Positions 36,998-39,722 of a stretch of 64,000 bases of DNA are shown here, piece by piece. The position numbers were made by a program, and so were the translations under genes. The notes below the pieces were generated by a model. The model was not told the DNA's origin. It did no database searches and saw nothing but the letters and a program-made list of their open reading frames with translations. The stretch's first letter is position 1, and the number at the start of each line of letters is the position of its first letter. Source of the stretch: an uncultured Kiritimatiellota bacterium (GTDB taxonomy: Bacteria; Verrucomicrobiota; Kiritimatiellia; RFP12; DVOR01); the NCBI GenBank assembly GCA_944389945.1, contig CALXOF010000001.1, positions 3,016 to 67,015 on the forward strand, written 5' to 3'.

Positions 36998-37939
36998 GGG
37001 GAGATTATAACAAAGGAGAACGGAAAACGGAGAACGGAGAACGGAACGCGCGGCAAGCGCGCGACGGGTGAGGGCGCTGGGAGGGCGTGGAAGGTTTGCC
37101 CTGCGGGGCTGACACGAAGGTGCACGAAGGACAAGGGGCGCTGACGCGCCCCGGAGAACGGAGCGTGCAGGCGCGAAGCGCCAAACCTTCCACGGCCACA
37201 GAGAACGGAGAACAGAACGCCCCTGCGGGGCGACGGGTGGAGTGGTGTGCCAGGGCTTCTCGGTCTCATCGCCGCCAAGGGCGGCGGTCCAGGCTTCAAC
37301 CTCTGTGGCTCCTCCAAGCCTCCAAGCTTCTAAACTTCCAAGCTTCCCATAGCCCCTGCACCCCCGGCACGTCTGCGACGTGCCAGAAGGACGACGAGGT
37401 AGGACATATAGGACATATAGGACCTATAGGACGGGGCTACGCCGGAGGACTCCCCAAAACCAAAGCGTGGCGTACGAAGCCCGCCATGCTCCTACAGGCC
37501 CCCGGGCCGGACGTGCGCCTTGCGCGCACGCACGGCCCGCCTTCAGCGTCGCCTTTCTTTGTGTCCTTTGTGAGACCTTGTGTCCTTTGTGATAAATCCA
37601 CACTAGCAGTCCTGCGTGCGCTAGCACGCCCTTAATCTGCAACAAATCTGTGAAATCTGCGGTTCCCCTGCGTCGTGCTCTTAGCCGTGGAAGGTTTGGC
37701 GCTTCGCGCCTGCACGGTGTCTCTTTGTGGTCCTTCGTGTTCTTTGTGATAGCCGCGCAGCGTTCGGTCTCATCGCCGCCAGGGGCGGCGGCCCGGGCTT
37801 TCACCTCTGCGGCTCCTCCAAGCCTCTAAACTTCCAAACTTTCAAGCTTCTACGGGGGCGCTTTGCGCCCCCGTAAGCGGCGCGACGGCACAAAAAAAGG
37901 CCCCCGGATGGGGGGCCTTTTGTGCCGAGTCAGCGACGC
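36998..37939. repeat. Mosaic repeat block (heptad GAGAACG tracts, gcgcgcggcaagcgcgcg hairpin, ggtctcatcgccgccaagggcggcgg module, cacg..ctagcacgcccttaatctgc module)
   Basis: All modules recur elsewhere in the window in different orders (see findings). Confidence 0.7.
37893..37920 (-). terminator. Terminator after gap
   Basis: Minus strand: ggccccccatccgggggcc followed by T7. Confidence 0.7.
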
Positions 37940-38938
37940 TTACTTGGCGATGACGCGAATCATCTCGACGACCTTGTTGGAGTAGCCCCACTCGTTGTCG
38001 TACCAGGAGACGAGCTTGACGAAGGTGGGATCCAGCTGGATGCCGGCCTTGGCGTCGAAGGTGGAGGTGCAGGGCTCGCCACGGAAGTCGGTGGAGACGA
38101 CGGCCTCATCGGTGTAGCCGAGGATGCCCTTGAGCTCGCCTTCGGAGGCTTCCTTCATGGCGGCGCAGATCTCTTCGTAGGTGGCGGGCTTCTCGAGCTC
38201 GCAGGTCAGGTCCACGACGGAGACGTCGGAGGTGGGGACGCGCATGGACATGCCGGTGAGCTTGCCGTTGAGGGCGGGGAGGACCTTACCCACGGCCTTG
38301 GCGGCGCCGGTCGAGGAGGGGATGATGTTCTCGAGGATGCCGCGGCCGCCGCGCCAGTCCTTCTTGGAGGGGCCGTCGACGGTCTTCTGGGTGGCGGTGG
38401 CGGCGTGGACGGTGGTCATGAGGCCGCGCTTGATGCCGAACTTCTCGTGCACGACCTTGGCGAGGGGGGCCAGGCAGTTGGTGGTGCAGGAGGCGTTGGA
38501 GATGATGGTCTGGCCGGCGTAGGTCTTGTCATTGACGCCGTAGACGAACATGGGGGTGTCGTCCTTGGAGGGGGCGGACATGATGACCTTCTTGGCACCG
38601 GCGTCGATGTGGAGCTGAGCCTTCTCCTTGGTGAGGAAGAGGCCGGTGGACTCGACGACGACTTCGGCGCCGACTTCGTTCCACTTGAGCTGGGCGGGAT
38701 CCTTCTCGGCGGTGAGGCGGATGGCCTTGCCGTCGACGTACATGGTGTTGCCCTCGACCTTGATGTCGTGGTTGAACTTGCCATGGACGGAATCGTACTT
38801 CAGCATGTAGGCGAGGTACTCGGGGTCGAGCAGGTCGTTGATGCCGACGATCTCGATGTCGTTGAAGTTCTCGACGGCGGCGCGGAAGACCATGCGGCCG
38901 ATGCGGCCAAACCCGTTGATGCCAACTTTGATGGACAT
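37940..38938 (-). CDS. gap: Glyceraldehyde-3-phosphate dehydrogenase
   Basis: '[20 protein letters not shown]', '[16 protein letters not shown]'. Confidence 0.95.
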
Positions 38939-39722
38939 TTCGTTACTCCTTGTCTGTTGTCCGGGGAGTTGCCTCGCCTGTGCGTGGATACGCCCCGATT
39001 GAATGAAGAAAAGAATACTTCACCCGGCGTGGAAAGTCAAGCGTAAAGTGGCTGATTGGCTGATTAGCTGATTGGCTGATTGGAACGCGCGGCAAGCGCG
39101 CGACGGGTGAGGGCGCTGTGCAAGCGTCGTTAGCCGCCGTCCTAGTCGTCCTACATGTCCTATATGTCCTACCGCGACGCCTGAGACTGCCAGAATAAGG
39201 AAACCGCCGATTACGCCGATTGGAGCCGATTAGGGGCCGGCTACCGCCGGCAGGACTGCCAGCGTGGATTTACCACAAAGGACACGAGGAGCCACAAAGG
39301 ACACAAAGGGGACTGGATGAATGGGTGATTGGAAGGGTGTGGGGCGCTGCCCCACGCCCCGGCAGGGAGAAGTTTTCCCTGCACCCCCGGCACGTCTGCG
39401 ACGTGCCACATAGGCGACGCGGTAGGACGTATAGGACCTATAGGACCTATAGGACGGCGGCTACGCCGCTTGGGATGCACGACTTTCCCATTTGCGTGCG
39501 GTAGCACGCCCCTAATCGGCTCCAATCGGCGTAATCGGCGGTTTCCTATTCTGGCAGAGCTTTGCGGACCTTTGTGTCTTTGTGGGTGCCGCGTAGCGAT
39601 GTGCCACGGCTTCGCCGGTCGCCCCGCAGGGGCGTTTCTGTGGCCGTGGAAGGTTTGGCGCTTCGCGCCTGCACGCTCTGTTCTCTGTTCTCTGTTCTCT
39701 GACGCGTGAGGGGCCCCGCCCC
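38939..39722. repeat. Mosaic repeat block (tgattggctgattagctgattgg heptads, ataggacc octads, triple-hairpin module, gattacgc/gattagggg module)
   Basis: Near-identical blocks at 42277-42948, 51835-52620 and 50276-51300. Confidence 0.7.

Follow-up and report, generated by a model that had tools for sequence, protein, structure and literature searches.

What fills the long spaces between the operons of an uncultured Kiritimatiellota bacterium, and by what process has it come to be there? The question is raised by a stretch of 64,000 nucleotides of its genome (contig CALXOF010000001.1; below, the window), in which the GAPDH gene (37940-38938, minus strand) is flanked by two long blocks of short repeat modules that we call blocks A and B, and in which similar blocks stand between many other genes. 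An earlier note on this DNA had likened these modules to the bacterial interspersed mosaic elements (BIMEs) that contain repetitive extragenic palindromes (REPs). Our analysis indicates that the blocks are most likely a non-coding, non-autonomous and lineage-specific family of the REP, BIME and Neisseria intergenic mosaic element (NIME) kind, belonging to a narrow gut clade of the Planctomycetes-Verrucomicrobia-Chlamydiae (PVC) group.

Composition and placement of the blocks

The non-coding part of the window, separated from the coding part by a gene map that relied on third-position GC content and in which most genes were checked against Pfam, amounts to 16.2 kb (25%). By self-BLAST, 53% of these non-coding bases match sequence elsewhere in the window, against 3% of the coding bases, and the description of a BIME-like mosaic of short extragenic palindromes filling most of the inter-operon space is borne out. 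Repeat-matched sequence makes up about 13% of the window, and the block-bearing spacers hold 21%; the very high density that the earlier note had claimed is thus real, and it far exceeds the roughly 1% that REP/BIME sequences occupy in E. coli. Modules are present in nearly all spacers of at least 345 bp, and self-BLAST combined with the gene map revealed none in the short, operon-internal spacers of the window. All the modules that had been listed before were recovered at or near their reported places, in 4-13 copies and on both strands: fuzzy matching yielded 8 sites for a1, 5 for a2, 7 for a3, 8 for b, 12 for c, 5 for d, 7-13 for e, 6 for f and 4 for g (19246, 20479, 22269 and 33742). Module c, with 11 matches at up to three mismatches, and module a3, with 7 at up to two, both had a chance expectation of 0.00 in 100 dinucleotide-preserving shuffles. 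In these spacers the program TRF detected dozens of short arrays of period 7-10 as well. Further families emerged beyond that list, namely X, M, L1/L2, P, Q, terminal "T" hairpins and 23-nt tandem arrays. The copies have diverged to 72-95% identity, the longest matching pair being 525 bp at 76%.

The blocks start directly past a stop codon or a genuine terminator and end just 5' of the next promoter. They are found in convergent, divergent and tandem spacers and in either orientation; the triple hairpin, which in the window stands twice sense and three times antisense to co-directional neighbours, displays no orientation bias. The terminal hairpins of a block can overlap stop codons. Terminator-like hairpins number 6 in the region, against 2.4 +/- 1.6 in shuffled sequence, and most of the block hairpins are without a T-run. 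The block-adjacent promoters (TGCTATAAT, TGCTATCAT and TGGTATCAT) are in several cases of the extended -10 type. Extended -10 boxes (TGnTATAAT) with no recognisable -35 element occur near blocks at 36998-37014, the start of a minus-strand gene, at 52620-52662, and at positions 11880-11900 and 17230-17250 of contig L085. Some block-adjacent promoters lie 6-10 nt from the ATG, as in the GT2 gene (TATAAT-CTCCCC-ATG), an arrangement which suggests that their mRNAs may be leaderless or have very short leaders.

Public gene calls are nearly absent inside the blocks, which contain only a few small unannotated open reading frames (ORFs). Long ORFs that cross them, for example 37087-37635 and 52107-52688, were rejected as coding sequence, with few gene calls there and insertions or deletions (indels) that alter unit number; the array periods of 7, 8 and 10 nt, none of them a multiple of 3, likewise argue against a coding reading.

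The c-module is a REP-type unit, being extragenic, palindromic and present in high copy number, and the same can be said of modules a, b, Q, T, E/F and M. The c-module is 33 nt long and consists of GTGGAAGGTTTG, a 5-bp stem with a 3-nt loop, and CTGCAC. In the 114 copies (27 variants) found in about 400 kb the flanks are invariant and the inner stem is exchanged (GGCGC/GCGCC, GGCCC/GGGCC, GCGGC/GCCGC or GGTGC/GCACC). Both partners change in three of the five inner-stem pairs, pairing holds in 97% of cells and 18 cells are double-changed, a level of covariation attained in 0 of 500 shuffles. Module X has the c-module scaffold with another stem, so that the two together can be written as GTGGAAGGTTTG, stem-loop, CTGMAC; modules E and F are likewise a single scaffold with two alternative stems. 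The long hairpin M (18581-18689, 19132-19240 and 54354-54461), missing from the earlier list, has the form GCAAGGG..GGGCAC-TTCACCGTTC-variable inner hairpin-..GTGCCC..CCCTTGC and takes its inner stems from the same set as the c-module. The triple hairpin A1-A2-A3 is highly conserved, most of its 25 distinct copies differing at few positions, and in a related species (L081) compensatory changes in the A2 and A3 stems keep the pairing. Mispairs within stems are divided almost equally between G-U (G-T; 16) and A-C (14), which gives no sign of one strand folding as RNA. Module g, about 100 nt long and composed of AAGGCGCGAAACGGAGGG...CCGATGGAGCCCGAAGCGGTTCGCGCC...GCGTCTTTGCGGT, lies on the plus strand at 19246-19335, 20479-20568, 22269-22358 and 33742-33831. 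The sampled DNA contains 37 distinct copies of it, in most cases with octad arrays ahead of them; its predicted multi-stem fold (z of -2 to -3.3) includes one covarying T-A/G-C pair and also G-A mismatches. Its orientation relative to genes is inconsistent, and it has no match in Rfam.

Between the hairpins stand short tandem arrays with periods of 7-10 nt, 598 of them in 372 kb, each of about 3-4 units (median length 27 nt, 5th-95th percentile 18-39 nt). The unit families, few and conserved, are also present in a related lineage (L076, L081, L082); in the window the unit types detected by TRF are GGAGAAC, TTGGAAGC, TGGCTGAT, GCAGATTA/GCCGATTA, CACAAAGGA, TAGGACATA, CAGGAGATA and ACGAAGGTGC. 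TRF also detected 23-nt arrays at four window loci, 5914-6000(+), 21696-21769(-), 35670-35746(+) and 51724-51833(+), with 3-5 copies of GAGACCCTATAGTGGTCCGGGTC. The core of this unit, GACC-CTATAG-GGTC, is near-palindromic, and the arrays, which mostly adjoin the heptad end of a block, look like iterated sites for a dimeric binding protein. They vary in copy number and orientation by strain (S23+ S23- S23+ as against S23+ S23+).

The modules had been thought to recur in shuffled order, a view that we cannot uphold: they are colinear and obey a foldback grammar. When 25 window loci and 125 blocks of a sister genome were tokenised with 25 hand-defined modules, a master order emerged in which the left arm H7 - B - B2 - X - R10 - P - A8 - E/F - K9 is followed by the asymmetric centre G8 - A1 - A2 - A3 - T9/C9 - L1 - L2 and by the right arm K9' - E' - A8' - P' - R10' - X' - B' - H7'. 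This order is followed by 456 of the 586 adjacent module steps (285 +/- 8 after shuffling), and 313 steps are near-adjacent in it (72 +/- 8 after shuffling); the test is partly circular, the master order having been taken from the same data, but the effect is large. A full 1-kb foldback is preserved at positions 5145-6146 of L003, where nested arms of 53, 65, 16 and 24 nt are 83-100% complementary (91% for the 53- and 65-nt arms and 100% for the 16-nt arm). The best full foldback in the window, 51835-52620 on the plus strand, folds as single-stranded DNA with a dG of -237 kcal/mol (z = -14.8); the first half of its string is T-hairpin H7+ B+ X+ R10+ P+ K9+ (C+) G8+ A1+ A2+ A3+ and the second half T9+ L1+ L2+ K9- P- E- A8- P- T9+ B- H7- T-hairpin. 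Derivatives of the foldback, whether truncated, fused or nested, make up the majority of the blocks. In the window the block-bearing spacers also include 5810-6524, 7143-7755, 11902-12287, 13176-13885, 18278-18735, 18821-19356, 20316-20713, 21359-21862, 22001-22371, 23443-23699, 24291-24821, 32231-32812, 33545-33906, 35080-36037, 41768-42948, 50303-51308, 54357-54563 and 57121-57465.

The blocks are continually remodelled

A comparison of ten conspecific contigs over 20 kb, with strains and relatives traced through identical ribosomal proteins, reveals how the blocks change. All of the sequences compared are metagenome assemblies, in which repeats of more than 100 nt common to several loci could mislead the assembler into collapsed or chimeric sequence, and the earlier note had itself raised the concern that the blocks are collapsed repeats. 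Such an origin is scarcely credible. The window is 99.995% identical to the ENA contig ONAT22-1_SAMEA6814568 scaffold_22 (L085, project ONAT22-1), with 1 mismatch in 20,354 bp; L085 and L093, a contig of the separate project BRZ_KH, differ over 15,056 bp, several blocks among them, by 1 gap and 0 mismatches (99.993% identity); and the structure of the window is found again in further samples. This agreement of contigs across projects implies that the differences between strains are not assembly noise.

The operon-internal spacers are invariant across the ten strains (61, 230, 60, 14, 90 and 4 bp); the block-bearing spacers, without exception, vary in both length and content. The spacer between GAPDH and the GT2 gene measures 612-1069 bp across 8 strains (614-1069 bp in the comparison of ten contigs) and has six different module strings; it is 942, 728, 524 or 711 bp long in strains whose GAPDH protein is identical. 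The spacer between a protease gene and ribD is empty (195-218 bp) in three strains and 719-1316 bp long in six, and that between ribD and an AAA gene has 27 bp or about 405 bp. The window itself has an "empty site" (27395-27446), where a single hairpin, GGCGCTGACGCGCC, in the form of a perfect 23-nt tandem duplication, stands immediately 5' of the promoter TGCTATAAT; in 6 other strains this spacer is occupied by blocks of 560-1150 bp. The presence of empty alleles in some conspecific strains means that the blocks are dispensable. Between an ABC ATPase gene and a rubredoxin gene (window 22001-22400; L086:18321-18722) there are two unrelated alleles of 355-377 bp, whose boundaries fall among the final codons of the ABC gene, which differ; strain L092 is recombinant there. 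In one of these alleles the ABC gene has its TAG stop codon within a block hairpin (ATCTAGGGGCGCTGACGCCCCTAGAT).

The finer changes are of several sorts. Arrays differ in the number of their units between strains (4 vs 2, for example), and CCGATT units have been patchily converted to CAGATT units. Between strains with identical GAPDH, a 32-nt octad array has been swapped for a heptad array plus a hairpin, the flanks remaining identical, and hairpin Q has been swapped in the same clean manner for a hairpin of type B. Comparison with Candidatus Spyradenecus faecavium discloses precise indels of 33 nt, 24 nt and 260 bp; no target duplication was seen at these indels or at the empty as compared with the filled spacer. 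The loop of palindrome A2 has received a sub-element of about 140 bp, and at one locus the A3-T9-L1-L2 segment is inverted in L083 and L084 relative to L075, as part of a larger rearrangement. The note had recommended relatives for a search for insertion polymorphism; conspecific strains have supplied both filled and empty sites, and Ca. S. faecavium precise hairpin indels. The blocks are continually remodelled by slippage, precise gain and loss of modules, nested insertion, deletion to a solo hairpin, an inversion at one locus in some strains, and cassette swaps. The relative identity of blocks and genes, tried as a test of selection, was uninformative, identity being mosaic in both.

Blocks A and B are both typical composite derivatives. 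Block A (36998-37939), 87% of which is repeat-covered, lies between the GAPDH stop codon and terminator and the promoter of the GT2 gene. Its string starts with H7+ B+ B2+ X+ R10+ / T-hairpin H7+ C+ H7+ Q+ / D+ D2+ W8- and continues with A3+ T9+ L1+ L2+ K9- / F+ A8- C- K9- / D+ D2+ W8-. The opening heptad array H7, (GGAGAAC)x4.4 at 37015-37045 on the plus strand, was defined by TRF and strain alignment and abuts the sequence TTTGTTATAAT, which stands 6 nt from the ATG of the minus-strand GT2 gene. There follow, at 37047-37130 on the plus strand, hairpin B (GCGCGCGGCAAGCGCGCG) with B2, an X module with GTGGAAGGTTTG and CTGAC around CCCTGCGGGG, and the 10-mer array ACGAAGGTGC. A T hairpin, GGGGCGCTGACGCGCCCC, caps the start of the second sub-element at 37135-37152, in which a plus-strand c-module (37164-37196) interrupts a heptad array. 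This c-module is precisely missing from the orthologous array of Ca. S. faecavium, leaving the empty site GGAG^AACAGAG with no target site duplication. Hairpin D, D2 and an octad array (TCCAAGCT)n form a "W8-D" sub-element at 37262-37347, with a second copy at 37766-37850; in other copies the unit is located in the loop of palindrome A2. Hairpin A3, the array (TAGGACATA)n, the conserved multi-hairpin centre L1-L2 and the array (CTTTGTGTC)n occupy 37366-37591 on the plus strand and, together with adjacent sequence, account for the 260-bp indel relative to Ca. S. faecavium. Then come hairpin F (CGTGCGCTAGCACG), an array of (TAATCTGC)n and a reverse c-module at 37615-37715, and a 24-nt hairpin insertion with the core GGGGGCGCTTTGCGCCCCC within an octad array (37851-37874), absent from Ca. 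S. faecavium, L043 and L044. The block is bounded by the intrinsic terminator of GAPDH (37887-37926, minus strand), a hairpin with a T-run that is conserved in every strain and does not itself belong to the repeats.

Block B (38939-39731) fills the spacer upstream of GAPDH, with the string G8+ B+ B2+ T9- P+ A8+ E+ K9+ A1+ A2+ A3+ T9+ F+ A8- P- K9- Q- C- H7- and a terminal hairpin. Between this block and the gene stands the promoter of GAPDH, TTGACT-17-TATTCT (39012-39040, minus strand). The octad array (TGGCTGAT)x4.4 at 39049-39083 on the plus strand is the one replaced in strain L043 by a heptad array and a hairpin. Within 39185-39557 the perfectly complementary arms, GACTGCCAGAAT..(GCCGATTA)3 and its reverse complement, stand on either side of the plus-strand triple hairpin (39336-39407). 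Block B as a single nested RNA hairpin was considered and rejected, its T9, P-A8 and K9 partners being in crossing order: where the arms cross the T9/K9 array pairing, one nested hairpin cannot form. The block closes at 39643-39731 with a reverse c-module, a heptad array (CTCTGTT)x3.7 and the terminal hairpin GACGCGTGAGGGGCCCCGCCCCTCACGCGTC, which overlaps the stop codon of the 39723-40148(-) gene.

Distribution of the modules and known repeat systems

The claim that the modules are specific to their lineage has stood up well. The exact 32-nt sequence of module c was found in only 2 of 185,579 species genomes, the uncultured Kiritimatiellaeota metagenome-assembled genome BRZ_EK bin27 (38 loci), to which the window genes are about 94-98% identical, and Candidatus Spyradenecus faecavium (3 loci), of a genus that the NCBI taxonomy places in the Lentisphaerota, also of the PVC group. 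All conspecific strains carry blocks, and in a neighbouring lineage with a different synteny (L076, L081, L082) the same modules and arrays appear in diverged form. A relative with a GC content of 71% (L078, L079) has compact spacers and no modules in 6 kb. A scan of JGI metagenomes for the c scaffold produced 28 single matches, accompanied by no other module and set in unrelated GC backgrounds, and these lone matches are accordingly attributed to chance. Three modules, the 23-nt unit included, had 0 matches in IMG/VR, and no plasmid was matched in PLSDB ("distant" mode). In Rfam the whole window gave 0 matches at gathering scores and 3 at E<=1, all with E of 0.4-0.93; one, asX2 at 37842-37918, spans part of block A and the GAPDH terminator and scores 26.4 bits against a gathering score of 70, and the other two are in coding sequence.

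Among the repeat systems already described, the REP/BIME sequences and REPINs of enterobacteria and pseudomonads, with their RAYT transposases (PMC3116915, Bertels and Rainey 2011; PMC3184786, Delihas 2011), bear a clear likeness to the blocks. Both involve GC-rich imperfect extragenic palindromes of 20-40 nt, in hundreds of copies between operons and with a conserved stem structure; both form mosaics with other short motifs, in which new elements insert into or beside old ones and remnant singlets persist. In the present case, however, arrays of 7-10-nt units stand between the hairpins, a foldback grammar of 0.5-1 kb orders no fewer than 25 module families, and no RAYT was found in the part of the genome that was sampled. 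A REPIN organisation was rejected: most of the 123 c/X cores are singlets or tandem pairs, and inverted doublets are a minority, with 6 convergent pairs at 61-73 nt.

The elements of Neisseria for which PMC3184786 has the term NIME offer a second parallel. They are intergenic mosaics whose modules are separated by a short recurring element and differ between strains. The blocks differ from them in having several array families as separators, rather than one 20-bp inverted repeat, and in belonging to another phylum; the dRS3 consensus ATTCCC-N8-GGGAAT had 0 matches in the window at up to one mismatch. In NIMEs, RS modules of 50-150 bp are flanked by dRS3 repeats, vary between strains and are thought to promote recombination. 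Intergenic heptad arrays are reportedly also a feature of the cyanobacterial short tandemly repeated repetitive (STRR) sequences, said to have been described by Mazel in 1990, and Elhai is said in 2008 to have termed the small dispersed repeats (SDRs) of Nostoc, palindromes of about 20-35 nt, "very small mobile repeated elements". By these definitions the blocks share with STRRs and SDRs both the heptads and the palindromes inserted precisely in repeats with no obvious target duplication, but the sequences and the host are unrelated and here there is a large foldback and nearly every spacer is filled. The BOX elements of Streptococcus pneumoniae, boxA-(boxB)n-boxC, have three module types, a repeating unit of about 45 nt and hairpin potential; they too are modular intergenic repeats with a sub-unit of variable tandem copy number, but are without a foldback super-structure or many module types.

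Foldback transposons and MITEs (miniature inverted-repeat transposable elements) provide the model for the long inverted arms with partly tandem sub-repeats and a unique centre, and for non-coding, multicopy elements with deletion derivatives. Terminal inverted repeats of the sort that characterise them are present, as witnessed by the 53- and 65-nt arms in L003 and by the fold of 51835-52620. In contrast to such elements, the blocks showed no target site duplication at any indel, no parent insertion sequence (IS) or transposase was found, and the copies are old and heavily recombined. A CRISPR array was rejected on account of the many hairpin families, "spacers" that are low-complexity arrays, and the lack of cas genes in the window. 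Our literature search found no published description of such repeats in the Kiritimatiellota or the PVC group, and the combination of interchangeable stems, families of 7-10-nt arrays, a foldback of about 1 kb and occupancy of nearly all inter-operon spacers is, as far as we found, new.

Origin and meaning of the blocks

How might such blocks have arisen and persisted? We lean, with moderate confidence, toward selfish or neutral REP/BIME-like repeat DNA that is remodelled by recombination. The ancestral form would have been a foldback of 0.5-1 kb, with nested arms H7-B-X-R10-P-A8-E-K9 around G8-A1-A2-A3-T9-L1-L2, first spread by a structure-specific enzyme acting in trans, most plausibly a hairpin-recognising HUH/Y1 protein (RAYT- or IS200-like). 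Its descendants would occupy, largely as selfish or neutral passengers, the selectively free zone that extends from the stop codon or terminator to the next extended -10 promoter; promoters of this type need no -35 box, and any sequence should therefore be tolerated upstream of them. Cassette swaps would be made by short-tract ectopic gene conversion between diverged copies and by allelic recombination between strains.

Several observations weigh against this account. No transposase or recombinase, and no PF01797 (Y1/HUH, RAYT) domain, is among the Pfam families of most window ORFs, a scan that left out a few ORFs such as those at 53505-54356 and 57466-62634. No multicopy repeat longer than 500 bp exists in 308 kb of the sister genome BRZ_EK bin27; metagenome-assembled genomes such as this one often lose IS copies. 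A tblastn search of about 420 kb with RAYT, IS608 TnpA and IS200 TnpA probes, a weak test, returned nothing below E=0.8. The copies are old, as their 72-95% identity attests, with no sign of a recent burst, and every precise indel or swap could come from gene conversion between existing variants, with no transposition at all. Conservation of the triple hairpin, the G module and the c flanks far exceeds that of the arms and extends across species, which could reflect a host function, and the exactness with which blocks end at promoters means that a regulatory role is possible.

A benefit to the host, with the blocks serving, through their many strong hairpins on both strands, as bidirectional terminators or insulators, as stabilisers of mRNA 3' ends (as proposed for REP/BIME) or as platforms for nucleoid proteins, would accommodate their strict confinement between stop or terminator and promoter in every type of spacer, the overlap of terminal hairpins with stop codons, the strong conservation of hairpin cores and the excess of terminator-like hairpins. 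We nevertheless hold it to be fairly unlikely, for genuine terminators such as that of GAPDH adjoin the blocks and are conserved separately, most block hairpins have no T-run, some strains lack blocks, unrelated alleles are interchangeable, a related lineage manages with compact spacers and no blocks, and a block of 0.3-1.3 kb is far above what insulation needs. The insulator or structured-RNA system envisaged in the earlier note has in fact gained no positive evidence, with no Rfam family, orientation bias or G-U asymmetry and with strains that lack blocks. That the blocks contain genes for structured non-coding RNAs or cis-regulatory RNAs, formed by the triple hairpin with the L1-L2 centre or by the approximately 100-nt G module and with protein-binding arrays, is very unlikely. 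The centre and the G module do have conserved, multi-stem folds with some compensatory stem changes, and GGA or AGG is present in most "+" arrays; against this, the blocks are dispensable and have no preferred orientation, Rfam is silent, G-U and A-C mispairs are balanced, and the perfect, bulge-free stems with 3-nt loops are typical of DNA palindromes. A sponge for a CsrA-type protein, made of GGA-rich arrays, was rejected: array types occur in both orientations within an element, whose transcript would then pair with itself, and no CsrA was seen, a weak test.

The variability of the blocks could also be programmed, a recombinase flipping or swapping promoter-proximal cassettes in the manner of an inverton or shufflon and so diversifying the regulation of surface and polysaccharide genes. 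The nested inverted arms around an asymmetric centre, the inversion of A3-T9-L1-L2 in L083 and L084, the changing orientation of S23 arrays, the clean swaps beside promoters, and the GT2, polysaccharide deacetylase and PEP-CTERM neighbours would all be expected. Yet the inversion is accompanied by other rearrangements and is no simple flip, the promoters, which are conserved, are situated beyond the limits of the blocks, none of the blocks was seen to have a recombinase gene nearby, and the housekeeping genes for GAPDH and S20 are flanked as well; we regard this explanation as quite improbable. A bolder version of the mobile-element origin, in which the blocks are the substrate of a dedicated structure-specific DNA enzyme system of this PVC clade that recognises hairpins with fixed flanks and inserts, excises, inverts and exchanges modules at a high rate, is unlikely. 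If true, it would mean that the species has, throughout its genome, hypervariable, promoter-adjacent, non-coding cassettes, which may tune transcription or chromosome organisation; the architecture of these, hairpins and short arrays in a 1-kb foldback, corresponds to no bacterial repeat class yet described.

The genes beside the blocks include GT2, polysaccharide deacetylase and PEP-CTERM protein genes and also those of GAPDH and S20. A cluster of PEP-CTERM/Laminin_G_3 paralogues, at 32813-35079 and neighbouring positions (3700-6600 in L085-L094), is interleaved with blocks and varies by strain, with 2 or 3 genes of 224-243 aa. A zeta-toxin/AAA_33-like gene (19357-20315, minus strand), preceded by a small ORF, has a third-position GC below that of its neighbours; the two are missing from the synteny of some strains and are possibly a toxin-antitoxin pair. 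ARAGORN identified a normal-looking class II tRNA-Tyr with a CCA end at 18736-18820(-), and no tRNA appeared in either Rfam scan. Just upstream of ribD, and overlapping its start, an ORF of 53 codons (about 27214-27375, minus strand) with a lipoprotein-like signal (MKATLLLLGLAALAVCGC...) is present in all ten strains and is annotated as a gene in some assemblies. The window also contains a secretin gene (2558-5809; PF00263), and the ORFs at 57466-62634 may, to judge from their N-terminal sequences, encode pseudopilins and secretion ATPases. If these genes serve DNA uptake of a type IV pilus or competence-like kind, they could feed the allelic recombination of the spacers.

The selfish or neutral repeat family that we favour would add a REP/BIME-like system to the PVC group, one with the unusual traits of interchangeable stems, conserved families of short arrays, a foldback master of about 1 kb and the occupation of about a fifth of the sequence. 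The block spacers offer high-resolution strain markers, and they are a warning for pipelines that call ORFs across blocks. This species is already represented by dozens of metagenome assemblies, and strains with about 99-100% gene identity differ in their block-bearing spacers; this amounts to a natural experiment on repeat turnover, from which its rate and its steps (slippage, hairpin gain and loss, conversion and excision) are measurable; and the existence of repeat-rich and repeat-free relatives provides data that can be used to find the responsible enzyme.

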